NCBI GenBank assembly: GCA_036675265.1
Contig: JAKFFJ010000016.1
Span: 125-64,124 of the forward strand
DNA from: Luteimonas sp.
GTDB taxonomy: Bacteria > Pseudomonadota > Gammaproteobacteria > Xanthomonadales > Xanthomonadaceae
Length of the DNA stretch: 64,000 nucleotides
Direction: 5' to 3'
Position 1 is the stretch's first letter. Each line of letters opens with the position of its first letter. Below, piece after piece: positions 22,062 through 60,560 of the stretch. Below the pieces are notes generated by a model, which was given only the letters and a program-made list of their open reading frames with translations, was not told where the DNA came from and made no database searches. The position numbers and the translations under genes were made by a program.

Positions 22062-23978
<1,917 letters not shown>

Positions 23979-23979
23979 C

Positions 23980-24585: not shown

Positions 24586-24588
24586 CTT

Positions 24589-24638: not shown

Positions 24639-24648
24639 GGGGGGGCGG

Positions 24649-39914: not shown

Positions 39915-39994
39915 CCGGCAGGCGGCCCCGGGGAGGGCGGCGATACAGGCCGGACCGGTTACATTTGCGCGGCCGCCCAAAGACCAACACCACC

Positions 39995-44229: not shown

Positions 44230-46101
44230 TCATGCCATGGCTCCGCCGACCGCCTGCCGCGCCGTCGCGAGCGCTTCCAGCACCTCGGCACCATAGCGCT
44301 CGAGCTTGCGGTCGCCGACCCCGTTGATGTCGCGGAGGGCCGCGAGTCCGGCAGGATCCGCGAGCGCGATCGCGCGCAGCGTCGCATCGTGGAAGATCAC
44401 GTAGGCCGGGACGTTCTGTTCGCGCGCCGCCCCGGCGCGCCATTCGCGCAACGCATCGAAGCGGCCCGATGCCTCGGCCGGCAGGTCCGCCAGTGGGGCG
44501 TCCGCCCTGCGTCCGGCGCGACTGCGCTTCCGGTCCCGCGCGGGGGGTTCCAGTCGCATCGACAGGGTGCGCCGGCCCTTCAGCACGTCCTCGCTCGCCG
44601 CGGTCAGTCGCAACGCACCGTGCCCCTCGACATCGACGTCGAGGACGCCCGCGGCCACCAGTTGCCGGAAGATGCTGCGCCACTGGCCGGCATCGAGGTC
44701 CGCGCCGATGCCGTAGGTGCTGAGCGCGTCATGCCCGAACTGGCGGGCCTTTGCGGTGTCCGCGCCCCGCAGCACGTCGACCAGGTGCGCCGCACCGAAC
44801 CGTTGGCCGGTCCGGTACACGCAGGACAGCGCCTTCTGCGCGGCGACCGTGCCGTCCCAGGTCGCGGGGGGCTGCAGGCAGTTGTCGCAGTTGCCGCACT
44901 GCCCCGGGTGCGACTCGCCGAAATACGCCAGCAACTGCTGGCGCCGGCAGGCCGTCGACTCGCAGTAGCCCAGCAGGGCATCGAGCTTGCGTCGCTCCAG
45001 GCGCTTGCGTTCCTCGCCCGCATCGCCGTCCTCGATCATCCGCCGCAACAGCACCGCGTCGCCCAGGCCGTAGGCCAGCCAGGCGTCGGCCGGATCGCCG
45101 TCGCGCCCGGCGCGGCCGGTCTCCTGGTAATAGCCCTCGATCGACTTGGGCAGGTCCAGGTGCGCCACGAAGCGCACGTCCGGCTTGTCGATGCCCATGC
45201 CGAACGCGATGGTCGCGACCATCACCACGCCGTCCTCCTGGAGGAACCGGCGCTGGTTGGCGGCCCGCACGCCTGCATCCAGGCCCGCGTGGTACGGCAG
45301 CGCCTTGAACCCCTGTGCCGCCAGGTATTCCGCCGTCGCATCGACCTTCCGGCGGGACAGGCAGTACACGATGCCGCTGGCGCCTCGCCGCTCCTCCAGG
45401 AAGGCCAGCAGTTGCCGCCGCCCGTCCTCCTTCGAGGCCACGCCGTAACGGATGTTGGGCCGGTCGAAGGACCCCACGAACGTTCGGGCGTCCTCCAGCC
45501 GGAGCCGCTCGACGATCTCGCGCCGGGTCGGGGTATCGGCGGTGGCCGTCAACGCGATCCGCGGCACCTCCGGCCAGCGTTCGTGCAGCACGGTGAGCTC
45601 GCGGTATTCCGGCCGGAAGTCATGGCCCCATTGCGAGACGCAATGCGCCTCGTCGATCGCGAACAGGGCAATCCGGGACTGGTCCAGCAGGCCCAGGAAC
45701 CGGGGCGTCAGCAGGCGTTCGGGGGCGACGTAGAGCAGCTCCAGCGCGCCGTCCAGGAGCTGGCGCTCGACGGACGCGGCCTCGCTGGCCGACAGGCTGG
45801 AATTGAGGCAGGCGGCCGCGACGCCGAGCTGTCGCAGGGCCTCCACCTGGTCCTGCATGAGCGCGATGAGCGGCGAGACGACGATGCCTGTGCCTGGCCG
45901 GAGCAGGGCAGGCAACTGATAGCACAGGGATTTTCCGCCGCCGGTCGGCATCAGCACCAGTGCGTCGCGGCCCTCGATGAGACAATCGACGACCGCCGCC
46001 TGGTCACCCCGGAACTGGGCGAAGCCGAAAATGTGACGCAGTTCCCGAAGTGGGCTTCCGGTCGTCAGGGGAGCGACGGAAACGTGATCTGAATCACGCA
46101 T
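44230..46101 (-). CDS. recQ: ATP-dependent DNA helicase RecQ
   Basis: [59 protein letters not shown], a zinc-binding [12 protein letters not shown]...CGNCDNC, and a C-terminal HRDC domain. 623 aa. Confidence 0.95.
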
Positions 46102-46142
46102 TTGCGGGGTATTCCATTCATGTTACCGGATGGATTTCACGT

Positions 46143-46171
46143 TTGACATAGTGCTAAAGTCACGTTTAACG
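46143..46171 (+). promoter_or_regulatory. Candidate sigma70 promoter for the DUF11 cluster
   Basis: TTGACA-N17-TTAACG lies in an unusually AT-rich spacer. It overlaps an 11-nt direct repeat TCACGTTT(G/A)AC at 46137 and 46160. The -10 element is weak. Confidence 0.25.
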
Positions 46172-46326
46172 AAACCTTGACTTGTCCGTACGGGACCTGT
46201 CGGGGTGGGAAAAGGGGACCACTGCGACAGTCCGAGTGGGACGTCCGTCGCAGTCCGCGCAGGAGCGATCACCGTCAAGCAACCGACCGACGCATGGTCG
46301 GTGCTCAAGCAAGAGTGTGCCATCGC

Positions 46327-46824
46327 ATGAACACCATCGACGTACTCGGAATTGTTCGGAAGCAGCGGTGGGCGCTTGGCGCCGCCGCGTTGCTGTGCGC
46401 GGCCGTCGTCAATGCGCAAGGCGCTTTCGAGGTCAAGGGCGCGGTCTTCCAGGACATCGAAGTGCGGACCCCGGAAGGCGAGGTCGAGACGAAGCGCGTA
46501 CCGGTCGCGACCGTCGTGCCCGGCAATGAAGTGATCTACGAGATCACCTACGTCAACCAGGGCGATGCACCCATCACCGAGGTGGCCATCAACAATCCGG
46601 TGCCGCCGCAACTGGCGTTTGTCGACGTCGAAGGCGCCCCGTACACGGCGGTATCGGTGGACGGCGGGCAGGCCTTTGGCGCGCTGGCCGAGTTGACGGT
46701 TCCGGCGGACGACGGACGCGAGCGCCCGGCACAGCCCGCCGACGTCACCCATCTTCGCTGGGTGCTCGGCGTCGTCGCACCAGGCAGCAACGGGAAGGTC
46801 GCGTTCAGGGCCCGGGTCAAGTAA
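46327..46824 (+). CDS. Small secreted single-domain DUF11 (conserved repeat domain) protein
   Basis: 165 aa. Signal peptide RKQRWALGAAALLCAAVVNAQG. VVPGNEVIYEITYVNQGDAPITEVAINNPVPPQLAFV and the terminal GKVAFRARVK fit the DUF11/TIGR01451 pattern. An upstream alternative start lies at 46177. Confidence 0.7.
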   Translation: MNTIDVLGIVRKQRWALGAAALLCAAVVNAQGAFEVKGAVFQDIEVRTPEGEVETKRVPVATVVPGNEVIYEITYVNQGDAPITEVAINNPVPPQLAFVDVEGAPYTAVSVDGGQAFGALAELTVPADDGRERPAQPADVTHLRWVLGVVAPGSNGKVAFRARVK

Positions 46825-46897
46825 CCACTCCAGCACCACGCCACATCCATTCCGGTCGCGGAACACCGGTTGAGACACACCAGGGGGGAACCTTTAC

Positions 46898-47986
46898 ATG
46901 AAGCGGAATTCGATCAAGCTGCTGACCGCAGCCCTGCTCCTTGCGGGCGCACAGCAAGCCTTCGCCGAGGGCACCACGGCCGGCACCGACATCATCAGCA
47001 CCGCGACGGTCGACTACAAGATCAGTGGCGTGTCGCAGGCGACGTTGAATCCGACCTACACGCCCTTCGAGGTCGACCGCCGGGTCAACCTGACCGTCAC
47101 GCTCGACACGTTGACGAAGAATGTCGCGCCGAACGCGCAGGACCAGGTGCTGGAGTTCACGGTCACCAACGGCACCAACGATGTCATCGACGTCGGACTG
47201 GGGGTGCTGGGGGTGCTGAACGGTTCGGGCGACGATTTCGATCCGACCGGGTTGGCCTACTACGTCGAAAGCGGCGCGGTGGCCGGTTTCGATCCGACGG
47301 ACGTCAGCGCGGCGATCACGTATATCGACGAACTCGGCGCGGACCTGACGAAGAAGGTCTACGTCGTCGGCGACATTCCTGCCGGGCTCGCGGATGCGTT
47401 GACCGGCCAGGTCGTCCTGACGGCGACCGCCCTGGAGGGTGGTACCGGCAGCACCCAGGGTGCTGCCCTGGTAGCGGATACCGATGCCAATGATCCCGCG
47501 GTGGTCGAGAACGTGTTCGGCGACGCGCAAGGCGCGACGGACGGGGCCACTCCGGATGGCAAGCACAGTGCCGCTGGCACCTACACGGTCGACACGACGA
47601 CGATCAACGTCAGCAAGACCTCGACCGTCATCACCGACCCCTTCAACTTGACGACCAACCCCAAGGCGATTCCGGGCGCGACGATCCAGTTCTGCATCCT
47701 GGTGGATAACACCGGTGCGACTGCTGCCACCGAAGTCAAGGTCGACGACCCGATTCCCACCGGCACGACGTATGTCGCCCAGAGCATCAAGGTGGGCGTT
47801 GAGTGCAATACGTATGACACCACTGCGGTCGCCGAGGACGACGATACGACCGACACCGCCGGTGAGGAAACTGACGGCACCAGCGGGAGTTGGGATGGCT
47901 CGACGATCCACACGCAGGTGACCAACCTGAACGGTGCCACGAAAACGGCGACGATGTTCCGCGTCAAGATCAACGGAACACCCTGA
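46898..47986 (+). CDS. Secreted two-domain protein with C-terminal DUF11 domain (candidate fibre subunit)
   Basis: 362 aa. Signal peptide MKRNSIKLLTAALLLAGAQQAFA. RBS GGGGGGA. The C-terminal half (KTSTVITDP...NPKAIPGATIQFCILVDNTGATAATEVKVDDPIPTGTTY...MFRVKI) is DUF11-like. Thr/Asp/Gly-rich. Confidence 0.75.
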   Translation: MKRNSIKLLTAALLLAGAQQAFAEGTTAGTDIISTATVDYKISGVSQATLNPTYTPFEVDRRVNLTVTLDTLTKNVAPNAQDQVLEFTVTNGTNDVIDVGLGVLGVLNGSGDDFDPTGLAYYVESGAVAGFDPTDVSAAITYIDELGADLTKKVYVVGDIPAGLADALTGQVVLTATALEGGTGSTQGAALVADTDANDPAVVENVFGDAQGATDGATPDGKHSAAGTYTVDTTTINVSKTSTVITDPFNLTTNPKAIPGATIQFCILVDNTGATAATEVKVDDPIPTGTTYVAQSIKVGVECNTYDTTAVAEDDDTTDTAGEETDGTSGSWDGSTIHTQVTNLNGATKTATMFRVKINGTP

Positions 47987-48005
47987 CCGATCCCTGCGGT
48001 CCCTG

Positions 48006-48035
48006 GGTCTTTCGAGGCTGACGCCTCGAAGGACC
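48006..48035 (+). promoter_or_regulatory. Intercistronic 13-bp stem-loop between the 362-aa gene and the giant OMP gene
   Basis: GGTCTTTCGAGGC-TGAC-GCCTCGAAGGACC (one G.U pair). It starts 20 nt after the upstream stop and ends 17 nt before the next start. No U-tract follows. Confidence 0.5.
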
Positions 48036-48051
48036 GGACGCCGGTGCCCAT

Positions 48052-51000
48052 GTGAAAACCAAATGGCCAGCCACCACTACTAGTACGCGCGCGCGCAGGT
48101 ACGCCCGGCCGATGGTCGCCGGGTGCCTCCTCGGTGCGCTGCTGGCCATGGCGGGCGGGGCTTCGGCGAGCGAGATCCAGAACACGGCGACGGTCCATTA
48201 CACCCTCGTCCGCACGCCCGGGCAGGGACCGCTGAACGTGACCGTCCCGAGCAACACGGTCCGGATGGCTGTGCTCCCGGCGCCGACCGAGGCGGTGATC
48301 GAGTTCCTCACCCAGGTCAGCGCGACGATCGCCGACCTGCCCGAACCTGGCCCGGAGTCGGCGGGGTCCGCGACGTCGCCCCTGCCCATGGGGCTCGGGC
48401 AGGTCGTGCCGACCGCCGCAGGGGAATTCATCCGCGTCGATGGCGCCTTTTGCCAGGACCTGTCCGGGACGTTCGCGCCGGCGCCCCCGGTGATCGGCGT
48501 CGATGGTCGCCCGCTCGATCCCAACGGCTTCGTGACCGTCGTCGCGACGAGCTATTCGCCCGGCGAAGCGGTGATCGTCAGCGTGGAGGACGGCGACCGC
48601 AACCTCGATCCGCTGGTGCGCGACTACGTGAAGGTCACGGTCAGGACCTCGCATCCGAACGAGGCGGAAACCCTGCGCATGCAGGAGACCGGCGAAGATA
48701 CCGGCAGGTTCGCCGCGGCGCTGCAGAGCGTCCCGATGCCGCCGGACCCCGTCGCGCACGATTGCAGGCTGGCGATCGGCAGCGGCGGCGCGCTGCAGAT
48801 CGAATACCTCGACGATCCAAACGCACCCGAAACCCAGGTGCAGACCACGATCACCGTCACCCCGAAGCCGCCGTCGCCGAGCAGCGTCGTCCTGCAGCTG
48901 TCGCAGCAGGCCTCGGTCGCGGAGGCGTCCATCGGCGACTTCGTCCAGTACACCGTCACCGTGTCCAATCCCGGCGGCGTGCCCGCGCTGGACACCCGCC
49001 TGGTCGACGTCCTGCCGCGCGGCCTGCGTTACCGCGACGGTTCGGCGCGCATCGTGTCGCGCAGCGGCGCTTCCGGCGGCACCGCCGGGGTGCCCGACGA
49101 GGTCGAGTTCACTGCGCTGGCAAGCGACGGCGGCTCGCTGGCGATAGGCCTCGGGACGATCGAGCCTGGCGTGACCGTCGTCGTGACACTCGTGGCCGAG
49201 GTGGGCAGTGGGACGCCTCCGGGCCAGGCCGTCAACGACACCGTGGCGGTCGCGGCCGGGCTGGTGTCCAACCGCCAGCAGACCGTCGTCGCGATCCGGG
49301 AACCGCTGATGGTGTCGCACTTCACCATCGTCGGCCGCGTCCTGCAGGGCACCTGCGACGGGGATCCGACGGATCGCGCGGGCGTCCCGGGCGTGCGCGT
49401 GCTGCTCGATGACGGCACGTACGTGGCGACCGATGACGACGGTGCCTACCACTTCGAAGGCGTCCGCCCCGGCACCCATGTCGTGCAGCTGGATGTCCCC
49501 ACCGTTCCCGCCGGACTGGAGCCGGTGGCCTGCGCGGACGACACGCGGCGCGCCGGACGCAGCTTCTCGCAGTTCGTCGAGGCACAGGGCGGCAGCCTGG
49601 TGCGCAGCGACTTCGTGCTGCAACCGGCCGCGCCTGCCACCGGTGCGGTCGGCGCGCGGCTGCGTGCAGAAGCCATCGCAGGTGGCACGCGATACACCGC
49701 CGAACTCGACGGTGGCCCGGTGCCCGCGTCGAACCTGCGTGCGATGCTGATGCTCCCCGAAGGCGCAAGGGTCGTCCCGGGGTCTGCAACCGTCGACGGC
49801 GTCGCGGTGGCGGATCCGGCGGTCGCCGCCAACATCGTCACGTTCGCGCTTGGCGATCCGGGCGCCACCTGGCGGCGCACGCTGCAATTCCATGTGCGCG
49901 CCGCGGGCGAGTGCCCTGCCGGCGGGATCGAAGCCAGGCTGGTGGCACTGTTCGATGCCGGCGGCCAGGCAGTGCAGAAAACGGCGCCGGCGACGGCGAT
50001 GCTGCCCTGCGGCCCACCGGGGCCGTCCGTCGACAGCGGGCGCGTGGAGTCGATCGTCAGCGCCGCCGCCGCAGGGCCGGCGGTTTCGCCGTTCGTGGAA
50101 GCGGAACAATCGCGCCGCGCCATCCTCGACGACGCCGCCGCGGCCGGCGGTGGCGACGTCGACTGGTTGCGCGACCAGGCACCCGGTCACGAGTGGCTGT
50201 TCCCGGCCGCCGACTACAACCCGCGCTCGCCGCTCACCCGGGCGGTCGTCAAGCACCTGCCCGGCGAAACCGTCCAGGTGCGGATCAATGGCGAGGCGGC
50301 TTCGCAGATCGCCTTCGATGGCGTCGTGGTCAACGCCGCGAAGACCGTGGCGACCAGCATCTGGCGCGGCCTGCCGTTGCGGGACGGCGACAACACGCTC
50401 GAGGCGCATATCTCCGACGCCGACGGCAACGTGGTTGCGCGACTCTCGCGCAACGTGCATTTCTCGGGGGCGCCGGCACGGGCCGAGCTGGTGCCGGAGC
50501 AATCGATCCTGGCGGCCGACGGCCTGCATTCGCCGGTGATCGCGGTGCGCTTCCTCGACCGGACCGGCCGCCCCGTGCGCGCAGGCATGGGTGGCGACTA
50601 CACCCTGTCGCCGCCGTACCTGCCCGCACAGGCGGTGCAGATGCAACAGCAGCGCCAGCTGGCGGGCATGGAGTCGTTCGAGCCGACCTGGCACGTCGAG
50701 GGCGACGACGGCATCGCCTACATCGCGCTGCAGCCGACCAGCGTCGCGGGCAGCGCCCTGTTGGGCTTCCGGTTCCAGCAAGGGCAGGGCAGGCAATCGC
50801 GGCAGGCGGACCACCAGGAGCTCGAGGTCTGGCTGAAGTCCACGCCGCGCGACTGGGTGGTCGTCGGCTTCGCGAAGGGCACCGTCGGGTACGACACGCT
50901 CGACGGGAACATGGAGGGACTGGACGCGGCCGGCCACGAGGCCGGGTTGACCACCGATGGCCAGCTCTCGCTGTACGCGAAGGGCCGCGTGCTGGGCAAG

Positions 51001-53397
51001 TGGATGCTCACCCTGGCCTACGACTCGGACAAGCCCACCGACCGCCTGCACCGCCAGGGCCTGTTGTCGGAGATCGATCCCGACCGGTTCTACACCCTGT
51101 ATGGCGACGGCACCCGGCAGGGATACGACGCCGCCAGCGCCGACAAGGTGTACCTCAAGCTCGAGCGCGACCAGTTCTATGCCCTGTTCGGCGACTTCAC
51201 CACCGGCCTGGACGACGGCGAGCTGACCCGCTACCACCGCACGCTCAACGGCCTGAAGGTCGAGTACCGCGGGCCGCTGGTCGAGGTCAACGCATTCGCC
51301 GCGCAGACTTCGCAGAACCTGGCGCGCGACGAGATCCAGGGCGACGGCACGTCGGGGCTTTACCGCCTGTCGCGCGGTGACATCGTCATGAACGGCGAGC
51401 GCGTGCGGATCGAAGTGCGCGACCGTTACCGCAGCGAGCGCATCGTCGAGACGCGCACGCTGGTCCGCCATGTCGACTACGACATCGACTATGCCGCGGG
51501 CACGCTGTTCTTCCGCGAGCCGGTGCCCAGCCGGGACTTCGACTTCAACCCGGTCTTCATCGTCGTGGAATACGAGACGCACGGCGACGGCGACACGTAC
51601 CTCAACGGCGGCGGCCGGGTCGGCGTGGACCTGCTCGAGGGGCGGCTGCGCGCGGGCGTGACCTACCTGAAGGAAGAGGACAGCACCGGGCAGTCGCAGC
51701 TGGCCGGCATCGATGCGCGCTTCCGCGTGTCCCCGGCCACCGAGGTGCGCGCCGAAGTCGCCTCGAGCGAAGGCGAGTCCGGCGCGGTCGAGCGCTCCGG
51801 CGACGCGTACCTGGTCGAGCTCGAGCACCACGACGAGCGGCTGGACGTGCTCGCCTACGTGCGCCGCCAGGCGCCGGGGTTCGGCCTCGGCCAGCAGAAC
51901 CGGTCCGAAGGCGGCATGTTCAAGGCCGGTGCCGACCTGCAGTGGCGGATCACCGACCGCTTCTCGCTGCAGGGCCAGGCCTGGCACCAGGAGAACCTGG
52001 TGAATGGCGCCACCCGCGACGCCATGAACGTGCAGGGCGAATTCCGTGCCGACGACTGGGGCATGCGCGCCGGCCTGCAATGGGTGCGCGACCAGGCGCT
52101 GGATGGGCGGATCGCCGAGTCGCGCCAGGTCACGCTGGGCGCCAACCGCTCGTTCCTGGACCGGCGCCTCGAGCTGACGGCGCGGGCCGACATCGGGCTT
52201 GACGGCCGCAACGACAGCGTCGACTTCCCGACGCGCCTGGAAGTCGGCGCCGCCTACGCGCTGACCGACACCTTCCGCGTGCTGGTCGCGCAGGAATTCA
52301 CCGACGGCGAGGACCGCGACACCTCCACGACGCGCTTCGGGTTCGAGGCGCAGCCCTGGGCGGGCGCGCGCCTGACCAGCACGCTGAACCAGGCGCAGAT
52401 CTCCGAATACGGGCCGCGCACGTTCGGCGTGCTCGGGCTCGCCCAGCAGTTCCTGGTGGGCGAGCGCTGGAGCTTCGACCTGGCGGCCGACACCAGCCAT
52501 GCGTTCGACGAATCCGGCGCGCCGTCGATCGTCGTCAATCCCGCGCATCCGATCGCGCCGGGCGGTATCGCGCACGCAGGCGCGCTGACCGAGGACTTCC
52601 TGGCGCTGTCGGGCGGTGCGACGTACCGAAGCGAATTGTGGTCGTGGAACGGCCGGCTGGAGCACCGCGATGGCGAACTCACGGACCGCCGCGGCCTGTC
52701 GACCGGCTTCCTGCGCCAGGCCGAGGACGGCGTCGCGGTGTCCGCGATGGCCCGTGCGTTCCAGGTCGACAATGCCGACGGCTCCCGCGGGCTGCTGGCC
52801 AACGCCAGCGTCGCGGTCGCGTGGCGGCCGCTGGGCAGCCGCTGGTCGCTGCTCGACCGCCTCGAGTTCCGCATGGACGAAGTGCGCCACGGCAACGGCG
52901 ACGCGCTGGTGGGTCAGGACACGCTGGCGGTCACCGGCGACGCGCGTTCGCGGCGGCTGGTGAACAACCTGGTGGCCAACTACGCCCCCGATCCGTGGAC
53001 CCCGGCCGACCGCCGCGGCAACCTGTTCGACGTCTCGCAGCGTAGCCAGCTCTCGCTGTACTACGGGTCCAAGTACGTCTTCGATACCTACGGCGGCGAG
53101 GACCAGGCGGGTTACACCGACATCTTCGGCGTCGAATGGCGGCACGACCTGTCGCCGAAGTTCGACGTCGGGCTGCGCGCGAGCGTCCGCCACTCCTGGG
53201 AGACCCACGCACTGTCGTACGCGTTCGGGCCTTCGGTCGGGTTCTCGCCCTTCGCCAACACGTGGTTCAGCCTGGGCTACAACATCGCGGGCTTCACCGA
53301 CCGCGACTTCGAGTCCACGCATTACACGGCGCGGGGTCCCTACCTGGTGATGCGCTTCAAGTTCGACCAGCAGACGTTCGGCGGTGGCGCCCAGTGA
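48052..53397 (+). CDS. Giant outer-membrane protein: N-terminal Ig-like domains (DUF11, SdrD-B/CarboxypepD_reg-like, Big_1-like) plus a large C-terminal beta-barrel-like region
   Basis: 1781 aa. Signal peptide ...LLAMAGGASA. DUF11 segment (IGDFVQYTVTVSNPGGVPALDTRLVDVLPRGLRY). GVPGVRVLLDDGTYVATDDDGAYHFEGVRPGTHVV segment. ILAADGLHSPVIAVRFLDRTGRPVRAG segment. The last roughly 900 aa show alternating hydrophobic/polar strand periodicity and end ...GPYLVMRFKF-DQQTFGGGAQ. GTG start, with an alternative in-frame ATG at 48112. Confidence 0.8.
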   Translation: MKTKWPATTTSTRARRYARPMVAGCLLGALLAMAGGASASEIQNTATVHYTLVRTPGQGPLNVTVPSNTVRMAVLPAPTEAVIEFLTQVSATIADLPEPGPESAGSATSPLPMGLGQVVPTAAGEFIRVDGAFCQDLSGTFAPAPPVIGVDGRPLDPNGFVTVVATSYSPGEAVIVSVEDGDRNLDPLVRDYVKVTVRTSHPNEAETLRMQETGEDTGRFAAALQSVPMPPDPVAHDCRLAIGSGGALQIEYLDDPNAPETQVQTTITVTPKPPSPSSVVLQLSQQASVAEASIGDFVQYTVTVSNPGGVPALDTRLVDVLPRGLRYRDGSARIVSRSGASGGTAGVPDEVEFTALASDGGSLAIGLGTIEPGVTVVVTLVAEVGSGTPPGQAVNDTVAVAAGLVSNRQQTVVAIREPLMVSHFTIVGRVLQGTCDGDPTDRAGVPGVRVLLDDGTYVATDDDGAYHFEGVRPGTHVVQLDVPTVPAGLEPVACADDTRRAGRSFSQFVEAQGGSLVRSDFVLQPAAPATGAVGARLRAEAIAGGTRYTAELDGGPVPASNLRAMLMLPEGARVVPGSATVDGVAVADPAVAANIVTFALGDPGATWRRTLQFHVRAAGECPAGGIEARLVALFDAGGQAVQKTAPATAMLPCGPPGPSVDSGRVESIVSAAAAGPAVSPFVEAEQSRRAILDDAAAAGGGDVDWLRDQAPGHEWLFPAADYNPRSPLTRAVVKHLPGETVQVRINGEAASQIAFDGVVVNAAKTVATSIWRGLPLRDGDNTLEAHISDADGNVVARLSRNVHFSGAPARAELVPEQSILAADGLHSPVIAVRFLDRTGRPVRAGMGGDYTLSPPYLPAQAVQMQQQRQLAGMESFEPTWHVEGDDGIAYIALQPTSVAGSALLGFRFQQGQGRQSRQADHQELEVWLKSTPRDWVVVGFAKGTVGYDTLDGNMEGLDAAGHEAGLTTDGQLSLYAKGRVLGKWMLTLAYDSDKPTDRLHRQGLLSEIDPDRFYTLYGDGTRQGYDAASADKVYLKLERDQFYALFGDFTTGLDDGELTRYHRTLNGLKVEYRGPLVEVNAFAAQTSQNLARDEIQGDGTSGLYRLSRGDIVMNGERVRIEVRDRYRSERIVETRTLVRHVDYDIDYAAGTLFFREPVPSRDFDFNPVFIVVEYETHGDGDTYLNGGGRVGVDLLEGRLRAGVTYLKEEDSTGQSQLAGIDARFRVSPATEVRAEVASSEGESGAVERSGDAYLVELEHHDERLDVLAYVRRQAPGFGLGQQNRSEGGMFKAGADLQWRITDRFSLQGQAWHQENLVNGATRDAMNVQGEFRADDWGMRAGLQWVRDQALDGRIAESRQVTLGANRSFLDRRLELTARADIGLDGRNDSVDFPTRLEVGAAYALTDTFRVLVAQEFTDGEDRDTSTTRFGFEAQPWAGARLTSTLNQAQISEYGPRTFGVLGLAQQFLVGERWSFDLAADTSHAFDESGAPSIVVNPAHPIAPGGIAHAGALTEDFLALSGGATYRSELWSWNGRLEHRDGELTDRRGLSTGFLRQAEDGVAVSAMARAFQVDNADGSRGLLANASVAVAWRPLGSRWSLLDRLEFRMDEVRHGNGDALVGQDTLAVTGDARSRRLVNNLVANYAPDPWTPADRRGNLFDVSQRSQLSLYYGSKYVFDTYGGEDQAGYTDIFGVEWRHDLSPKFDVGLRASVRHSWETHALSYAFGPSVGFSPFANTWFSLGYNIAGFTDRDFESTHYTARGPYLVMRFKFDQQTFGGGAQ

Positions 53398-56300
53398 GGG
53401 CGTTCCGGCCAGGCGTGGCCTGCGTGGCCTGGCTGGTGGCGCTGCTCGTGGCGCTCGGTGCCGCCACGGATGCGCACGCCGCCATCAAGACGGTCTACGT
53501 CCATGACGACGGAACCCTGACGCGTACGCCGCAGGCCGCCGTGGCGACCGCGGGCATCGTCCCCATCGACAGCAAGGGCGACTTCAACGACTGGGTGTTG
53601 GCGCCCCCGGTCGCCGCCGGCAAGTCCCTGGTGCTCAGCCCGGGGAACATCAACGCGACGCTGGTGGTCAGCAGTTCCGCGCCGGTGACCGCCCGGGTGG
53701 AGCTATGGGACGGCGCGCCCGGCGCAGTGGGGTCCACGCTCCTCGCCGCCACCGCGGCGGATGTCGCGGTCAACAGCACGACGCCGGTGTCGACCACGTT
53801 CGTGATGCCCCTGGCCGGCGCGGCGACCATCGCGGCGGGGCGCCCGCTTGGCCTGCGGGTGATCAATACCCTGGGCCAGGGCGGCAGCAAGACCCTGACC
53901 GTCCACCAGTACGGCGCCGGCGTCCGCAGCACGATCGCGTTCGCCACGTCGACCTTCGTCAACGTCGACAGCGTGGCCATCCATTCCGCGGTGTACCCGG
54001 GTGCAGCGACGAAGTCGGCCTACGCGCGCAACAACAGCGTGTACGTGCGGGCCGTCGCCAGCGATCCGTTCGGCAGCGCGGACATCAGCGGTGCCACGCT
54101 GACCCTGACCGACCCGGGCGGCACGGTGCGCGTCGCTGGCGCGGCCATGCCGCAGGTGGCCGATTCCGGCGTCGCGACGCGCACCTACGAGTACACGTAC
54201 GTGTTGCCGTCCACGGCGCCGTTCGGCCAATGGACCGCCACGGTTACCGCCAGCGAAGGCACGGAAGGCACCGTGACCCATGCCGGCAACGCAACGTTCC
54301 AGGTCGCGCTGGCGTCGCTGTCCATCACGAAGTCGCACACCGGCAACTTCACGGCGGGCACCAACGGCACGTACTCGATCGTCGTGCAGAACAACGGCGG
54401 CACCGTGACCGGGCCGACCACGGTCACCGACACGCTGCCGGCCGGCCTGACGTTCGTCTCCGGCACCGGGACCGGGTGGAGCTGCGGCGCTGCCGGGCAG
54501 GCGGTGACCTGCACCAACGGCGCGACCATCGCCAATGCCACGAGCCTGCCGACTTTGAACCTGACGGTTGCCGTGGCCGGCAGCGCGCCGTCGAGCGTCA
54601 GCAGCCTGGCCAACGTGTCGAACCCCAACGTCAACGGTGGCGCCAGCGTCAGCAGCAACACGGACACGACCGTCGTCGTTCACCCGGACCTGTCGAATTC
54701 GGCCACGGCCGTGCTCGACCTCAACGGCGGCGACGCCGAACCCGGCGACGTGCTGCGCTACACGGTCAGCCTCGTCGAGAGCGCAGGCGGCCCGGCCACG
54801 TCGATCGGCGTGACCGACGACATGCCGGCGGGCATCACCGGGTTCACGGTGGTATCGACGCCCCCGGGCAGCACGAATGCCTCCACCGGGGGCGGCGGCG
54901 CGAACGCCACGGGCCGGCTCGACGTCACCGGCATCTCCGTGCCGGCGAGCGGAACGGCGACGATCGTCTTCGACATCACCGTCGGCGCGGGTGCGGCAGC
55001 CGGCTTCACGATCGACACCGCGCCCATCGCCGCGAACCCGAACGGCCCGGGAGGCACCGCCACCGCGCCGACCGTCACCGTGTCGCAGTCCCAGGTCGCC
55101 GCCTCCGGCAACAAGCTGCTGTACGTCTACGACAACCTTTCACTGACGCGCACGCCGCAGCCGGCGGCCACCACGGCGGGCGTGCAGATCGCCAGCGGCG
55201 GGACGTCGAACTGGACGCTGGCGCCGCCGATCCCGGCGGGTGAAACGCTGGTGCTGCCCGCTGGGGACATCGGCGTGAACCTCGTGACGTCCAGCACGAA
55301 CGGCAAGTCGGCCACCGTCACGGTGGCACTGTTCGACGGCGCGACCCAGGTGGGCCCCACCGCGACGCAGATCTTCTCGAGCACGGTGCCGACGCTGCGG
55401 ACCTTCACCATCGCGCTGCCCGCCCAGTACACCCTGGCGGCCGGTGCCCAGCTGGTCCTGCGCGTCACCAACACCACGGGCGGCAACGTGCCGGTCGCCG
55501 TGTCCCAGTACGACGGCGTGCGCAGCGACATCAAGTTCGCGACCTCGACCGTGGTCAACGTCGACAGCGTGAACCTCTATTCGTCCGCGTTCCCGGGGAC
55601 GACCACCAAGCCGTTCTACGCCGCGAACGACGTGCTGTACGTGCGGGCGGTGGTGAGCGACCCGTTCGGCAGCGCCGATATCGGCGGTGCGAGCATCCGC
55701 CTGCTGGACGGCAACGGCGTGGTGCAGCTGGCGCCGGCCGAAATGACGATGGTCGCCGATTCCGGCGCCAACGCGCGGACCTACGAATACCAGTTCACGT
55801 TGCCGTCGAATGCCATGGTCGGGTTCTGGACCGCCACCGTGACCGGTCGCGAGGGCACGGAAGGCACCATCACCCACCTGGTCAACCGTTCGTTCGGCGT
55901 CGGCGTCGCCCAGTTGACGCTGGCGATGTCGCACGCCGGGGATTTCGTCGCGGGCACCAACGGCAGCTATACCCTGGTCGTGCACAACAACGGCGACCCG
56001 GTGTCGGGCACCACGACCGTCACGGACACGTTGCCGGCGGGCCTGTCGTTCGTCTCCGGAACGGGCACCGGGTGGAGCTGCAGCGCGGCCGGCCAGGTGG
56101 TGACCTGCACCAACGCCACCGCCCTGCCGACCGACGGCGACCTGCCACCGCTGGCGCTGGTCGTCGCCGTCGCCGGCAGCGCCCCGGCGACGGTGAACAA
56201 CGTCGCGTCGGTCGCCAACGCCGGCGTGGACGGCGGCAACCCGCAGAACAGCAATACCGACGCGACCACGATCCTGCATCCAGACCTGTCGACGTCCACG

Positions 56301-59300
56301 CTGTCGGTGCTGGACCTCAACGGCGGCGACGCCAACCCGGGCGACGTGCTGCGCTACACGATCGACCTGCACGAGACAGCCGGCGCTGCGGTGGCGGGCG
56401 TGGGTGCCACCGTGCAGGTGCCTGCCGGGGTCGCCGGCTTCACGGTGGTGGACGTCCCGGCCGGCAGCACGGATGCCTCGGTCGCCAGTGGCGGCGCGAA
56501 TGGCACCGGGCTGCTGGACATCACCGGCATCGCGCTGTCGCCCGACGCCAGCGACACGATCGCGTTCGAGGTCACCATCGGGGCGGGCGCGACGCCGGGC
56601 GCCACCCTCGACGCCACCGCCATCGTCGCCAACCCGAACGGTCCCGGCGCCACGGCGGCGGCATCGACGATCACCGTGTCGCAATCGCAGGTTGCCGCCT
56701 CCGGCAACAAGCTGCTGTACCTGTACGACAACGGCAGCCTGACCCGCACGCCGCAACCGGCCACGAACACCGCCGGCGTGACGATCGCGACCGGCGGCAT
56801 CCAGAACTGGACCCTGGCGCCTGCCATCCCCGCCGGGAAGTCGCTCGTGCTGGACGCGGGCAACGTGTCGGCCACGATGGTCCTCAACAGCAGCGGCAAC
56901 ACCGTGTCGGTCACTGCAGCGCTGTTCGACGGCGCCACGCAGGTGGGTACCACGGCTACCCAGAACCTGACCAGCAACGCGCCCACGCCGGTGGCGTTCA
57001 CCATTCCGCTCTCCGCGCCCTACACGCTGGTCGCGGGCCGGCAGCTGGTGCTCAGGGTGACCAACACGTCCAACGGCAACCGCCCGGTCACCGTGCACCA
57101 GTACTCGGGCACGCCGAGCGTGCTTTCGTTCAGCACCGCGACGGTGGTCAACGTCGACACCGTCGCGATCTACGCCGCGCCGTACCCCGCCACCACGACG
57201 AAGGCGTTCTATGCGGCGAACGACATCCTCTACGTCCGCGCCGTGGTGAGCGACCCGTTCGGCAGCGCGGACGTCGGCGGCGCGACCGTGTCGCTGGCCA
57301 CGAACGCCGGGGCGCCGATGCTCAGCGCCGCGGCGATGACCCAGGTCGCGGATTCCGGCGTCGCGACCCGAACGTACGAACGCGCCTACACGGTGCCAGT
57401 CGGGGCCGCCGTCGGGTTCTGGACCGCCAGCGTCACCGGTCGCGAAGGCACCGAGGGCACGGTCACGCACACGGGCAACACGTCCTTCGGCATCGGCGTC
57501 GCGCAGCTGACGCTCGCCAAGTCCCATGTGGGTGACTTCACCGCCGGCGCCAACGGCAGCTGGTCGCTGGTGGCGCACAACAACGGCAGCGCGGTTTCGG
57601 GCACGACCACCATCGTCGACACCCTGCCGGCGGGGTTGTCGTTCGTCTCCGGCACCGGCACCGGCTGGTCGTGCGGCGCCGCTGGGCAGGTCGTCACCTG
57701 CACCACGACCACCGGCATCCCCACCGGTGCGGACCTGCCGACGCTGACCCTGACCGTCGCCGTCGGCGGTTCTGCCCCGGCGAGCGTTGCAAACGTCGCC
57801 ACCATCTCGAACCCGGGCGTGGACGGCGGCAACCCGCAGAACAGCAACGCGGACAGCACCACGATCCGGCACCCGGACCTGTCGACCTCCACGCTCGCCG
57901 TGCAGGACCTCAACGGCGGCGATGCGAACCCCGGCGACACGCTGCGCTACACCGTCGACCTGGTCGAGTCGGCGACGGCGGCCGCGACGGGCGTGGCCGT
58001 CACCAGCGACATGCCGGCGGGCGTGCAGGGGTTCACCGTGGTGTCGATCCCGGCCGGCGCGACGAATGCATCGCTTCCCACCGGCGGAGCGAACGGCACC
58101 GGCCGACTGGACATCACGGGTGTCACCGTGGCCGCCGGCGCCTCGGCCAGCGTCGTGTTCGATGTCGTGGTCGGCGCAGGCGCGACACCGGGCACGGCCA
58201 TCAACGGCGCGGCAGGCATCGCCAATCCCAACGGGCCGGGCGCCTCGCCGATCGCGTCGACGATCATCGTGTCGCAGTCGCAGGTGGCGGCCTCGGGCAA
58301 CAAGCTGTTGTACCTCTACGACAACGCCACGCTGACGCGCACCCCACAGGTCGCGCTGGATACCGGCGGCGTCGCCATCGCGACGGGCGGCACGCAGGAC
58401 TGGACGCTATCGCCCGCGATCCCCGCGGGCAAGTCGCTCGAGCTGAGCGCGGGCAACGTCACCGCCACGCTGGTGGTGGACACCGCCAACCAGCAGGCCA
58501 CGGTGACCGCACGCCTGTTCCACGGCGCGACCCAGGTCGGCACGACGGGCAGCCAGACGTTCACCGCGAACGGCGCCTCGCCGCGCATCTTCACCATCGC
58601 GCTGGCGGCGCCATACACCGTGCCGGCGGGCGCGCAACTGGTCCTGCGCGTCGGGACGACCGGCGCGGCGGCGACCGTGCACCAGTACCGGGGCGCGCCC
58701 AGCACGCTGTCGTTCGCCACCACCACGGTGGTGAACGTCGACAGCGTGGCGGTCCACTCCGAGGCGTATCCCGCGGCCACCACCGCGCCATTCCTGGTCC
58801 ACGGGAACACGGCGTACATCCGTGCCGTGGTCAGCGACCCGTTCGGCAGCGCCGACGTCGGCGGCGCCAACATCACCCTCACCGATCCGGGCGGCACGGT
58901 GCGCGTCAACAACGTCGCGATGACGCAGGTCGCGGATTCCGGCGTCGCCACGCGCACCTACGAATACCAGTACAACATCCCGCCGGGGGCGCAGCTGGGT
59001 TCCTGGACCGCCGGCGTCGTCGCACGGGAAGGCACGGAAGGCACGGTGACCCACAGCGGCAATGCCGCGTTCGCGGTCCAGGGGACCATCTCGGCCGGCA
59101 TGACCTGGGTGGACGCCAACGCCGGCGATTCGGTGGCATTGACGGTCGCAGGGGGAACCGGCGCGGTCGCCGGCAGTTCGACGGCGCCATCGACCACCAC
59201 GCCGGCCTCGGGGACGTCGACGGCCGGCGCGACGATCACGTTGTCGCAGGCGTTCACCGTCGGCAGTGCCGGCAGCTACAGCCTCACGCTCACCTGCACG

Positions 59301-59864
59301 CGCGGCAGCGACGGCACGGCGCTTCCGGTCTCGGGCCTCGGCCTGGACCGGACCATCACCATGCCGGTCGACAGTTCGGTCGCCTGCACATGGACCAACA
59401 CACTCTCGGTGCCGTTGACGGTGGTCACCGTGACCACGGTGCACTCCGACCCGTTGAACGGGACGGTGAACCCCAAGGCCGTGCCCGGCGCACTCGTGAC
59501 CCACCAGCTCCAGGTGATCAATCCCGCGCCGGTCGCGGTCGATGCCGACACCGTGGTGGTGACCCACGCGGTTCCGGCGGGCGCCGGCCTGTTCGTCGGC
59601 GACCTGGGGGCCGTGGGCTCGGGGCCGGTGTCGTTCGCGGACGGCGTGCCCGCGAGTGGCCTGGCCTACGTGTTCGTGGCGCTCGGGGACGCCGGCGACG
59701 ACGTGTCGTTCTCGGCCGACAACGGCGCGACGTTCGGATACGTGCCGACGCCCGACGCCAACGGGGTCGATGCGTCCGTGACCCACCTCCGGGTGAATCC
59801 GGGAGGCGTCTTCGCCGCGGACGGCGGCACCTTCCAGCTGCAGTACCGCGTCAGGGTGGAGTAA
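53394..59864 (+). CDS. Giant modular secreted protein (about 2156 aa) built of repeated beta-sandwich/DUF11 modules; candidate adhesin
   Basis: The GTG start overlaps the stop of the preceding gene (GTGA). Signal peptide VRAFRPGVACVAWLVALLVALGAATDAHA. There are three full modules of about 532-542 aa and a fourth half module, each with TDTLPAGL.FVSGTGTGWSC...VTCT DUF11 motifs. A unique roughly 260-aa C-terminal region ends in a DUF11-like domain. Confidence 0.8.
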   Translation: MRAFRPGVACVAWLVALLVALGAATDAHAAIKTVYVHDDGTLTRTPQAAVATAGIVPIDSKGDFNDWVLAPPVAAGKSLVLSPGNINATLVVSSSAPVTARVELWDGAPGAVGSTLLAATAADVAVNSTTPVSTTFVMPLAGAATIAAGRPLGLRVINTLGQGGSKTLTVHQYGAGVRSTIAFATSTFVNVDSVAIHSAVYPGAATKSAYARNNSVYVRAVASDPFGSADISGATLTLTDPGGTVRVAGAAMPQVADSGVATRTYEYTYVLPSTAPFGQWTATVTASEGTEGTVTHAGNATFQVALASLSITKSHTGNFTAGTNGTYSIVVQNNGGTVTGPTTVTDTLPAGLTFVSGTGTGWSCGAAGQAVTCTNGATIANATSLPTLNLTVAVAGSAPSSVSSLANVSNPNVNGGASVSSNTDTTVVVHPDLSNSATAVLDLNGGDAEPGDVLRYTVSLVESAGGPATSIGVTDDMPAGITGFTVVSTPPGSTNASTGGGGANATGRLDVTGISVPASGTATIVFDITVGAGAAAGFTIDTAPIAANPNGPGGTATAPTVTVSQSQVAASGNKLLYVYDNLSLTRTPQPAATTAGVQIASGGTSNWTLAPPIPAGETLVLPAGDIGVNLVTSSTNGKSATVTVALFDGATQVGPTATQIFSSTVPTLRTFTIALPAQYTLAAGAQLVLRVTNTTGGNVPVAVSQYDGVRSDIKFATSTVVNVDSVNLYSSAFPGTTTKPFYAANDVLYVRAVVSDPFGSADIGGASIRLLDGNGVVQLAPAEMTMVADSGANARTYEYQFTLPSNAMVGFWTATVTGREGTEGTITHLVNRSFGVGVAQLTLAMSHAGDFVAGTNGSYTLVVHNNGDPVSGTTTVTDTLPAGLSFVSGTGTGWSCSAAGQVVTCTNATALPTDGDLPPLALVVAVAGSAPATVNNVASVANAGVDGGNPQNSNTDATTILHPDLSTSTLSVLDLNGGDANPGDVLRYTIDLHETAGAAVAGVGATVQVPAGVAGFTVVDVPAGSTDASVASGGANGTGLLDITGIALSPDASDTIAFEVTIGAGATPGATLDATAIVANPNGPGATAAASTITVSQSQVAASGNKLLYLYDNGSLTRTPQPATNTAGVTIATGGIQNWTLAPAIPAGKSLVLDAGNVSATMVLNSSGNTVSVTAALFDGATQVGTTATQNLTSNAPTPVAFTIPLSAPYTLVAGRQLVLRVTNTSNGNRPVTVHQYSGTPSVLSFSTATVVNVDTVAIYAAPYPATTTKAFYAANDILYVRAVVSDPFGSADVGGATVSLATNAGAPMLSAAAMTQVADSGVATRTYERAYTVPVGAAVGFWTASVTGREGTEGTVTHTGNTSFGIGVAQLTLAKSHVGDFTAGANGSWSLVAHNNGSAVSGTTTIVDTLPAGLSFVSGTGTGWSCGAAGQVVTCTTTTGIPTGADLPTLTLTVAVGGSAPASVANVATISNPGVDGGNPQNSNADSTTIRHPDLSTSTLAVQDLNGGDANPGDTLRYTVDLVESATAAATGVAVTSDMPAGVQGFTVVSIPAGATNASLPTGGANGTGRLDITGVTVAAGASASVVFDVVVGAGATPGTAINGAAGIANPNGPGASPIASTIIVSQSQVAASGNKLLYLYDNATLTRTPQVALDTGGVAIATGGTQDWTLSPAIPAGKSLELSAGNVTATLVVDTANQQATVTARLFHGATQVGTTGSQTFTANGASPRIFTIALAAPYTVPAGAQLVLRVGTTGAAATVHQYRGAPSTLSFATTTVVNVDSVAVHSEAYPAATTAPFLVHGNTAYIRAVVSDPFGSADVGGANITLTDPGGTVRVNNVAMTQVADSGVATRTYEYQYNIPPGAQLGSWTAGVVAREGTEGTVTHSGNAAFAVQGTISAGMTWVDANAGDSVALTVAGGTGAVAGSSTAPSTTTPASGTSTAGATITLSQAFTVGSAGSYSLTLTCTRGSDGTALPVSGLGLDRTITMPVDSSVACTWTNTLSVPLTVVTVTTVHSDPLNGTVNPKAVPGALVTHQLQVINPAPVAVDADTVVVTHAVPAGAGLFVGDLGAVGSGPVSFADGVPASGLAYVFVALGDAGDDVSFSADNGATFGYVPTPDANGVDASVTHLRVNPGGVFAADGGTFQLQYRVRVE
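53487..59089 (+). repeat. Diverged tandem coding repeats, period about 1.6 kb (3.5 copies)
   Basis: The anchor codon (K of AIKTVY/GNKLLY) recurs at 53487, 55113, 56709 and 58302, giving periods of 1626, 1596 and 1593 nt, all multiples of 3. By eye the copies are roughly 70-85% identical at DNA level. Confidence 0.85.
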
Positions 59865-59870
59865 GGCGCT

Positions 59871-60461
59871 TCACTGCAACAGCGAGCGCAGCATCCAGGC
59901 AGCCTTCTCGTGGGTCTGCAGGCGCTGGGTCATCAGGTCCTCGGTCGGGTCGTCCTCGGCGGCGTCGGCGATCTCGAGCACCCTGCGCGCGGACCGGCAC
60001 ACCGCCTCGTTGCCGACCACCAGCTGGCGCACCATCTCCCGCCAGTCCGCGGCGTCGGGCATGCCCGGTTCCTCCGGAATGGACGAAAGCCGGATGAACT
60101 CCGCGTACGACCCTGGTGCGTTGTAGCCCAGCGCGCGGATCCGCTCGGCAATCTCGTCGAGCGCGCCCCACTGCTCGGTGTACTGGGCCTCGAACATGAC
60201 GTGCAGGGCATTGAACATCGGCCCGGTCACGTTCCAGTGGAAGTTGTGGGTCTTCAGGTACAGGGTGAAGCTGTCGGACAGGAACACCGACAGGGCCTGG
60301 GCGATCCGGCGGCGGTCGCCATCCGCGATGCCGATGTCGATGGCCGGCGCCGACGAACCCGCGGCCGGCGATGCCGCCGGCGTGTTGCGCGCCGTCCCCG
60401 AAGGCTTCGCGGACTTCGCCCGGTGCGTCGTCTTGCGTGGCTTGGCGGTCTTCTTGGCCAT
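59871..60461 (-). CDS. dps: Dps family DNA-protecting ferritin-like protein with extended Lys-rich N-terminal tail
   Basis: LYLKTHNFHWNVTGPMFNALHVMFEAQY and DEIAERIRALG ferroxidase-site motifs. About 45-aa N-terminal MAKKTAKPRKTTHRAKSAKPSG... tail. Confidence 0.92.
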   Translation of the reverse strand: MAKKTAKPRKTTHRAKSAKPSGTARNTPAASPAAGSSAPAIDIGIADGDRRRIAQALSVFLSDSFTLYLKTHNFHWNVTGPMFNALHVMFEAQYTEQWGALDEIAERIRALGYNAPGSYAEFIRLSSIPEEPGMPDAADWREMVRQLVVGNEAVCRSARRVLEIADAAEDDPTEDLMTQRLQTHEKAAWMLRSLLQ

Positions 60462-60505
60462 GCTGCTGCTCCTGTGGTTGCGGGTTTCCCGGGTCCGTTA
60501 CGGTG

Positions 60506-60534
60506 ACAATACGCCGCCGCCGTGCCCTTTTGAA
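60506..60534 (-). promoter_or_regulatory. Candidate sigma70 promoter of dps
   Basis: The minus strand reads TTCAAA-N17-TATTGT, about 45 nt upstream of the dps ATG. Confidence 0.3.
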
Positions 60535-60560
60535 ATGGATTATTCCTGCCGGATCGATCG

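Follow-up and report, generated by a model that had tools for sequence, protein, structure and literature searches.

A candidate giant outer-membrane barrel protein with an adhesin-like stalk, encoded among secreted CLIPPER proteins in Luteimonas sp.

A 64,000-nucleotide stretch of DNA from Luteimonas sp. (contig JAKFFJ010000016.1), referred to here as the window, contains a gene for a 1781-amino-acid (aa) predicted outer-membrane protein (48052..53397, + strand, GTG start), hereafter the barrel protein. Structure prediction and fold comparison make it highly probable that this protein joins an adhesin-like stalk to a giant outer-membrane barrel. The feature is real, occurs widely, and is uncharacterized. 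The gene stands in an operon with those of three further secreted proteins, termed cap, shaft, and adhesin, all of which carry CLIPPER (formerly DUF11) domains, and this operon is the main clue to the function of the barrel protein. On balance, we lean toward the barrel protein serving as an outer-membrane pore or anchor for its operon partners in a CLIPPER fiber system. It would be usher-like in its working while standing outside the usher family, and it would be fused to a terminal anchoring subunit.

Anatomy of the barrel protein and its family

The C-terminal part of the protein was modeled with AlphaFold2 (AF2) over aa 690-1781, using 52 sequences, and the 1092-residue model reached a predicted local distance difference test score (pLDDT) of 78 and a predicted template-modeling score (pTM) of 0.71. 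Following two immunoglobulin (Ig)-like domains, ~41 DSSP strands of 7-18 residues each, joined by turns of mostly 2-6 residues, were found in aa 920-1770 (50809..53361, + strand), a region that ends in GPYLVMRFKF. When segments 1077-1086 and 1088-1096 are taken as one kinked strand, the count becomes 40, and an even strand number fits a barrel with both ends in the periplasm. The predicted connectivity is that of a strict up-and-down hairpin meander. Hydrophobic and polar residues alternate in many of the strands, the final strand is rich in aromatic residues, and several strands are only weakly amphipathic. The initial annotation of this DNA had described a large amphipathic beta region at the C terminus, larger than the barrels of autotransporters, and had proposed structure prediction as a check. 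Both descriptions agree with the model, in which the last ~850 aa form ~40 hairpin-linked strands, many of them amphipathic, versus 12 in an autotransporter barrel; the prediction returned a ~40-strand antiparallel meander whose neighbors are mostly outer-membrane barrels.

These neighbors were identified with Foldseek, in which most of the high-probability hits were large outer-membrane barrels, including LptD, SlpA, MtrB, TonB-dependent receptors, FimD, and SprA. The Foldseek probability was 1.0 for most of them and 0.91-0.97 for SprA, with template-modeling (TM) scores of only 0.07-0.28 (0.11-0.19 for SprA, ≤0.24 for LptD, and about 0.2 for SlpA). A few large non-barrel repeat proteins also ranked in the list, at lower probability. 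By the model, then, the fold class of this region is that of an outer-membrane barrel with no close known relative. Searches of Pfam, NCBIfam, PDB sequences, and PDB profiles gave no match for aa ~700-1781 beyond a faint Ig-like similarity; neither LptD (PF04453) nor Omp85 (PF01103) was matched in Pfam, NCBIfam, or the PDB profile search. A clear full-length match to a known outer-membrane protein family, which the initial annotation had named as evidence against its proposal, was not among the results of these searches.

Strand pairing was also analyzed by mean-field direct-coupling analysis (DCA) on the strand columns of 335 barrel sequences (effective number, 236; median identity, 40%). Among the 150 top couplings, 59 link strands that are adjacent in sequence, although such pairs constitute ~5% of all strand pairs, and adjacent pairs score 0.47 versus 0.278 +/- 0.063 for non-adjacent ones.

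Between strands 9 and 10, a 70-residue beta insertion was modeled (aa 1097-1166; 51340..51549, + strand; pLDDT ~77-85). Residues 1090 and 1173 couple strongly across it in the DCA, indicating that the segment is a true insertion into a hairpin. It belongs to the most conserved segments, at 2.9-3.1 bits versus 2.2 overall. Within the barrel module, conservation peaks in the first strands together with the insertion (aa 965-1171) and in the last strand (aa 1744-1773), that is, in the putative seam and its neighbor. The initial annotation had suggested a plug. A compact, conserved beta insertion between co-evolving strands, placed as in ushers, is indeed present; the term plug is apt only by analogy, because a domain of 70 residues cannot occlude the lumen of a 40-strand barrel.

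A search with the barrel part alone, at E ≤ 1e-3, gave 3356 cluster representatives (50% identity); 1322 were obtained at E ≤ 1e-30. Among the best 150 of the 3356, the match is almost always a single ~855-residue stretch at or near the C terminus, and most of the proteins have lengths of 1000-2800 aa. The family occurs in at least 588 species genomes, with members in Lysobacteraceae, Steroidobacteraceae, Burkholderiales, Moraxellaceae, Nitrospirota, Sphingomonadales, and Asticcacaulis; the window itself is of the Xanthomonadaceae/Lysobacteraceae type. The family is common in cultivable soil, water, and plant-associated genera such as Sphingomonas, Sphingopyxis, relatives of Lysobacter, and Asticcacaulis. 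The source annotations of the homologs read only "DUF11 domain-containing," "OmpA family," or "hypothetical." Solan et al. 2021 (PMC8346858) described a large superfamily of single-chain barrels from proteobacteria, for which 38 or 40 strands were predicted from contact maps; it may be the present family, the two being likened by strand count and family size only. In the searched parts of its main text, neither a function nor an operon nor a connection to CLIPPER is given for the superfamily.

Distant homologs have two blocks in common with the barrel protein, namely, an N-terminal part comprising a hairpin, a CLIPPER domain, and a prealbumin-like domain, and everything from aa 696 on. In many of them (e.g., P0053, P0035, and P0026), an OmpA-like peptidoglycan-binding domain lies between the two blocks, after a CarboxypepD_reg-like domain, and one homolog adds SPOR domains downstream of the barrel; the window protein and most homologs have no peptidoglycan-binding domain. 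Since OmpA and SPOR domains both bind the cell wall, the barrel should have its two ends on the periplasmic side, as judged from these domain arrangements.

The N-terminal half was modeled separately. AF2 models contain six or seven Ig-like domains in the stalk of the barrel protein, and aa 40-720, predicted from a 59-sequence alignment, are all-beta with a pLDDT of 86. The order in this model is a long hairpin, a disordered loop, a beta domain (D1), the CLIPPER domain, a prealbumin-like sandwich, and an Ig-like sandwich. Its closest folds in the PDB are SdrD (the top match), UafA, PrgB, BcpA, SpaD, RrgB, EbpB/C, LrpA, and integrin legs. The arrangement given in the initial annotation, Ig-like modules first and a very large beta region last, is therefore the one seen in the AF2 models.

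The N-terminal hairpin, recognized by conservation and in the AF2 model, occupies aa 40-75 (IQNTATVHY...PSNTVRMAV; 48169..48276, + strand). Its N5, A7, S28, and N29 show little or no variation in 59 homologs and rank with the most conserved residues in the N-terminal 680 aa. A low-confidence, Pro/Gly/Ser-rich loop (aa 94-121; 48331-48414, + strand) precedes D1 and parts the hairpin and a third strand from that domain. This loop could be a flexible tether that lets the hairpin swing out. D1 itself was delimited in the AF2 model (aa ~80-270; 48289..48861, + strand); it has a weak NCBIfam match to an anammox S-layer protein, and profile comparison detected no relation to CLIPPER or to the middle domain of the shaft protein.

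A complete CLIPPER domain with its own terminal VNDT...SN hairpin follows at aa 281-420 (48892..49311, + strand), as identified by Pfam, NCBIfam, and PDB profile searches. Its DUF11 signature, noted in the initial annotation, is significant at aa 281-400 (PF01345, 1e-07, above the Pfam cut-off; TIGR01451, 1.9e-13), and the family profile matches the CLIPPER crystal structure 9IFR at 5.8e-08. The domain has Gln at the position of the isopeptide Lys (LSQQAS) and keeps the Asp and the Asn. CLIPPER domains have been described in fibrillar adhesins, without this operon or barrel (PMC12617251). In the literature search, a "DUF11" match in a tafi paper proved to be DUF1102, and other DUF11 text matches looked irrelevant by title or abstract.

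Next comes the prealbumin-like sandwich (aa 428-525; 49333..49626, + strand), which resembles CarboxypepD_reg and SdrD_B. The matches of both families at aa 438-484 are below the Pfam cut-offs here, yet significant in homologs; hence, of the earlier designation "SdrD_B-like," the family match was sub-threshold and the likeness of fold stands, SdrD being the top match of the model. C396 and C455 of this sandwich are invariant in the 59-homolog alignment. An Ig-like sandwich (aa 529-671; 49636..50064, + strand) was modeled with a pLDDT of 93-97. A conserved DWL...WLFP...NPR linker then opens the module common to all distant homologs, with which BLASTP alignments start at aa 696, and precedes two further Ig-like domains (aa ~710-910; 50179..50781, + strand; AF2). 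The latter show a faint profile similarity to the Ig-like domains of glycoside hydrolase family 2 (GH2) enzymes in the PDB profile search. This region had been likened to a Big_1 or invasin module: no Big_1 match was obtained, and its Ig-like nature was recovered as the two modeled sandwiches.

Operon partners and their terminal modules

In the window, the four genes lie on the + strand in the order cap, shaft, barrel gene, and adhesin. The cap gene (46327..46824, + strand) was recognized from its translation as encoding a 165-aa secreted protein with one truncated CLIPPER/DUF11 domain (Pfam DUF11, 1.1e-06); the protein lacks an N-terminal hairpin and ends in ...VAFRARVK-COOH. Two other loci, L005 and L006, have homologous genes, of 166 and 176 aa, in the corresponding place. 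The shaft gene (46898..47986, + strand) encodes a 362-aa secreted protein that consists of a signal peptide, a hairpin (IISTATVDY...FEVDRRVNL), a middle domain, and a truncated CLIPPER domain, and that ends in MFRVKINGTP-COOH. Downstream of the barrel gene, the adhesin gene (53394..59864, + strand, GTG start) encodes 2156 aa, among which a signal peptide, MG2-like modules, and four repeats of CLIPPER were recognized; the C-terminal domain, which ends in FQLQYRVRVE-COOH, is a homolog of the one in the shaft protein. The GTG start of the adhesin gene overlaps the TGA stop of the barrel gene in the sequence GTGA (53394-53397), which implies translational coupling of the two largest genes. The signal peptides of cap, shaft, and adhesin are of the Sec type.

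Synteny was surveyed at 87 loci from Alpha-, Beta-, and Gammaproteobacteria and Nitrospirota. The shaft gene lies directly upstream of the barrel gene in 70/72 loci, and a cap gene is present upstream in 71/72. A second, shaft-like gene for a "minor" subunit was found in 59/69 loci, and a large adhesin follows downstream in about 40 of the 87. As judged from window positions 46102-46326 and loci L001-L004, the clade of the window is without the ~350-aa minor subunit gene and has a very large downstream adhesin instead; sphingomonad loci often show the reverse pattern. This conserved operon of four to five genes had no part in the initial annotation, which dealt with the barrel protein by itself. 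Eight annotated loci, including the window, have no chaperone, ATPase, sortase, or other outer-membrane or secretion gene in the operon. A PapD-like family is listed for no gene in six related annotated loci, and the small protein of the window is a DUF11 domain.

The partner proteins have their ends in common. Cap, shaft, minor subunit, and adhesin all terminate in F-[RQK]-x-x-[VI]-x-COOH, with Phe at position -6 in 61/72, 75/79, 59/61, and 26/41 sequences, respectively. The strand at this C terminus lies at the edge of a CLIPPER domain, which ends at position 101 of the 148-position hidden Markov model (HMM) for the complete domain and is therefore without the last two strands. Aligned by hhalign with complete CLIPPER, the truncated domain gave an E value of 6.8e-10 over columns 15-109 of 149. 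The truncation as such is well established. In the structure 9IFR, the last two CLIPPER strands are the ones that carry the isopeptide Asn.

At the other end, an x-N-T-A ... S-N-x-V hairpin follows directly after the signal peptide in 57/70 shaft proteins, 53/59 minor subunits, and 71/74 barrel proteins, and is absent from cap and adhesin. The hairpins of the shaft and barrel proteins are homologous (hhalign P = 4.7e-05); the domains after them are unrelated (E = 0.87). Among 120 homologs of the shaft protein, the isopeptide Lys and the catalytic Asp are kept in all 120, and the hairpin Asn, which matches the Asn of the triad, is kept in 108. In the clade of the window, this Asn is Ser (ISTATV, residue 34), whereas the hairpin of the barrel protein keeps its Asn. 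Should the hairpin Asn of other species engage in an isopeptide bond, links between shaft subunits would be non-covalent in the organism of the window. The distribution of these end modules, i.e., acceptor only, donor plus acceptor, and donor only, is what a head-to-tail fiber would need. Comparisons of the hairpin with the missing strands were negative: appending the hairpin to the C-terminal domain yielded no gain in HMM score (29.7 bits versus 30.4 and 30.2 bits for shuffled and reversed hairpins), and profile-profile comparison with the CLIPPER tail (E of 0.2-0.4) detected no homology to the two strands.

Proposed function and its alternatives

We reasoned that the barrel protein could act as the pore and anchor of a fiber assembled from its operon partners. 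Sec would export it to the periplasm, and its C-terminal ~850 residues would insert in the outer membrane as a ~40-strand barrel with both ends periplasmic. The lumen would let the Sec-exported cap, shaft, and giant adhesin, as well as the protein's own N-terminal stalk, reach the cell surface. The N-terminal hairpin and the stalk would root the fiber to the barrel; homologs with OmpA or SPOR domains would also tie the fiber to peptidoglycan. A likely gate or docking site would be made up of the 70-residue insertion and the highly conserved first and last strands. By general barrel geometry, the lumen of a ~40-strand barrel would measure several nanometers and should pass folded Ig-like domains, which would explain the need for so large a barrel. 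If confirmed, this would be a new outer-membrane export and assembly pathway for folded, possibly cross-linked, Ig-like fibers in proteobacteria and Nitrospirota, on a route unrelated to chaperone-usher, type V, and type IV pili, curli, and the type 9 system.

A close working analogy is that of the chaperone-usher ushers PapC and FimD. There, too, a barrel is encoded with Sec-exported Ig-like subunits and a tip adhesin, a small beta domain is inserted between two early strands, and Ig-like domains are linked to the barrel; the fold matches include FimD, and the complementary terminal modules of the fiber proteins described above recall donor-strand exchange. The two systems differ in strand number (~40 versus 24), in the absence of a PapD-like chaperone gene here, and in the subunits, which are CLIPPER/CnaA-like rather than of pilin fold, and here the barrel protein itself bears a subunit-like hairpin and a long stalk. 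The usher family (PF00577) was not matched in Pfam or NCBIfam at E ≤ 1, and the family profile found no PDB usher at E ≤ 10. SprA/Sov of the type 9 secretion system, at 36 strands the largest barrel solved, offers a second likeness, as it is a single-chain giant barrel fit for folded proteins whose cargo has a conserved C-terminal domain. In contrast to SprA, to which it has no sequence relation and the low TM score given above, the present barrel is C-terminal, is fused to an adhesin-like stalk, and occurs in Pseudomonadota and Nitrospirota instead of Bacteroidota. The SprA family gave no NCBIfam or Pfam match, and no Por (PorV, PorK, PorL, PorM, or PorN) or Gld genes were found near the operon. 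If closed, the barrel would exceed SprA, the largest solved single-chain barrel, and would raise the questions of how BAM, the machinery by which beta-barrels are assembled, folds ~40 strands and how so wide a lumen stays sealed.

Several points weigh against a closed barrel that transports its partners. The strand count, 38-41, is read from a prediction. In the DCA, the aggregated score of the first and last strands is 0.30, that is, at background (0.278 +/- 0.063). A single first-last pair, 923-1761, has a score of 0.85, which 57.5% of adjacent and 4.9% of non-adjacent strand pairs attain; this one coupling gives a likelihood ratio of about 12, and co-evolution backs the closure of the barrel weakly. 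The OmpA domain inside the N-terminal half of homologs allows a wholly periplasmic N-terminal chain, and the partner proteins could take the general type II secretion route instead of the barrel. AF2 packs the hairpin of the barrel protein confidently in cis (pLDDT 82-91). Finally, our literature search found neither experimental data on any member of the family nor a study of the operon.

The most serious rival is a self-contained, autotransporter-like adhesin, whose barrel would export and anchor only its own Ig-like passenger, while the CLIPPER neighbors would travel otherwise and merely decorate it or cooperate with it. Here, as in type Va and type Ve autotransporters, barrel and Ig-like adhesin modules are united in one chain, and the order of passenger and then barrel is that of classical, type Va members; it is opposite to that of intimin and invasin (type Ve), whose barrel is N-terminal, just as the initial annotation had pointed out. 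The N-terminal half resembles surface adhesins, and passage of the partners through the barrel is itself only inferred. Nevertheless, 12 strands suffice for self-export, and a barrel about three times larger would be left unexplained. The system also depends on a partner operon. The synteny with cap and shaft is near-universal (70-71/72 loci), the adhesin gene is translationally coupled, and the hairpin that the barrel protein has in common with shaft and minor subunits points to joint assembly. Moreover, peptidoglycan-binding domains flank the barrel in homologs, OmpA ahead of it, between passenger and barrel, and SPOR behind it, so that an autotransporter whose barrel is merely larger is an incomplete description. 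Neither PF03797 (type Va) nor IAT_beta or Big_1 (type Ve) was matched in Pfam, and no helix lies ahead of the barrel in the AF2 model. We consider this explanation unlikely.

Peptidoglycan binding brings in a different comparison, with the SlpA protein of Deinococcus, a 30-strand barrel at the C terminus of a chain whose N-terminal part binds the wall. SlpA chains (8ae1, 8agd, and 7zgx) are among the best fold matches, and homologs with an OmpA domain (many) or SPOR domains (one) would likewise bridge the outer membrane and the peptidoglycan. The barrel protein might then be a structural component of the envelope, linking outer membrane and cell wall, with a periplasmic N-terminal chain and a barrel acting as an anchor or a non-specific channel. 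We regard this as improbable, since the window protein and most homologs are devoid of the wall-binding domain, the secreted CLIPPER operon with its 2156-aa adhesin would be left unexplained, and surface proteins are where CLIPPER, SdrD-like, and pilin-like domains typically occur (PMC12617251). The present protein also differs from SlpA in having neither an SLH domain nor a coiled coil, and the two superimpose at a TM score of only about 0.2.

Two further explanations fare worse. That AF2 and Foldseek are misleading and the C-terminal region is a soluble beta-rich structure, either a solenoid or an array of sandwiches, would accord with the weak amphipathicity of several strands and the background-level closure signal. 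It is hard to reconcile with a strict hairpin meander of 10-18-residue strands, with a pTM of 0.71 for a model of 1092 residues, and with fold neighbors at probability 1.0 that are outer-membrane barrels (0.91-0.97 for SprA); 38- and 40-strand barrels were, in addition, predicted from contact maps in the large and possibly identical family described in PMC8346858. We hold this to be very improbable. The remaining proposal, a gated uptake channel related to TonB-dependent or SusC/Oar-type receptors (CarboxypepD_reg plus plug plus barrel), appears scarcely credible. It would draw on the weak CarboxypepD_reg match, on the small conserved insertion domain, and on the TonB-dependent receptors among the Foldseek neighbors. 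Yet neither Plug (PF07715) nor TonB_dep_Rec (PF00593) was matched even at E = 1, the insertion is found within the barrel, after strand 9 and before strand 10, rather than ahead of it, the strand count is about twice 22, and the operon is fiber-like, with no TonB, ExbBD, or substrate-binding genes nearby.

Returning to the pore and anchor of a CLIPPER fiber, a bolder version of it may be considered, which we put forward as a doubtful possibility: a donor-hairpin pilus pathway for two-membrane bacteria, possibly covalent, free of chaperone and sortase, and threaded through and rooted in its own ~40-strand barrel. The subunits would be "split" CLIPPER domains, each body lacking its last two strands, and the N-terminal NTA...SN hairpin of the next subunit would complete the preceding body. 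In most species, a spontaneous intermolecular Lys-Asn isopeptide bond might seal the join, like a natural SpyTag/SpyCatcher. Cap or adhesin, as acceptor only, would come first; shaft and minor subunits, as donor plus acceptor, would extend the fiber; and the barrel protein, as donor only, would come last, its hairpin terminating a fiber threaded through, and held by, its own barrel. A hairpin of the barrel protein that dangles as a free donor was not supported by the AF2 model, which places its strands in cis. Self-complemented monomers are known for TasA-type fibers.

There is precedent for parts of such a scheme. In archaeal threads, the N-terminal strand of an Ig-like subunit completes its neighbor, and the join is sealed by isopeptide bonds (PMC9715654), and in TasA fibers, the N-terminal strand of one Ig-like subunit completes the next (PMC9674648). 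Strand complementation in the present system differs from these cases in being a proposal. Sortase pili of Gram-positive bacteria have CnaA-type domains with the same Lys-Asp-Asn triad; they differ in their use of a sortase, which is absent here. We know of no fiber of the archaeal-thread, TasA, or sortase kind described as crossing the outer membrane through a dedicated giant barrel. Were the donor-hairpin version true, the barrel would be the largest single-chain barrel known, and split CLIPPER domains with a Lys-Asp-Asn triad across subunit ends could yield protein-ligation tools.

Gene model and genomic surroundings

Since the window is 70% GC, long spurious open reading frames (ORFs) are common in it. 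By a codon-position GC filter, the ORF at 48052..53397 showed the codon bias of a real gene, with a GC content at third codon positions (GC3) of 0.90. An antisense ORF of 1913 aa that spans the gene (47581-53322, - strand) failed the GC3/codon-position filter and is likely a high-GC artifact. From the sequence, a signal peptide was assigned to aa 1-39 (48052..48168, + strand, upstream of 48169), with cleavage after ASA (...LLAMAGGASA-SEIQ). An alternative start codon is possible at Met21 (48112), at which the public copy P0001 of the protein begins; a STRAR motif and a hydrophobic core are common to the N termini of homologs. The motifs quoted in the initial annotation were all located, including the signal peptide, LVMRFKF with its 10-aa tail, and the RGDIVMNGERVRIEV segment. 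Rfam revealed no regulatory RNA in 45900-48200, and neither a sigma-70-like promoter nor a credible internal terminator was found in 45900-60600.

The operon is flanked by unrelated genes, namely, recQ (44230-46101, - strand) upstream and a ferritin/Dps gene (59871-60461, - strand) and hrpA (60534-63998, + strand) downstream. Farther upstream in the window, at 39965-41464 and 42259-44151, lie genes for a CpoB/YbgF-like TolA-binding tetratricopeptide repeat protein and for radical-SAM and secreted beta-propeller proteins, with no apparent link to the operon. In L005, an extra 1477-aa protein of the Gram-positive-pilin type, with SpaA_2/3/4 and CLIPPER_2 domains, follows the adhesin (20479-24912); it has no counterpart in the window. 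The chromosomal site is the same in two other Lysobacteraceae: the operon lies after recQ and before ferritin in L005 and before hrpA in L006, where the gap in which recQ would lie has no called gene. These common housekeeping neighbors suggest vertical inheritance at a fixed site in Lysobacteraceae. In several unrelated genomes, cyclic-di-GMP genes (PilZ, GGDEF-EAL, and GGDEF) adjoin the operon (L002, 2883-6744; L005, 4346-5527; L006, 2602-3702), which hints at regulation of the biofilm type.

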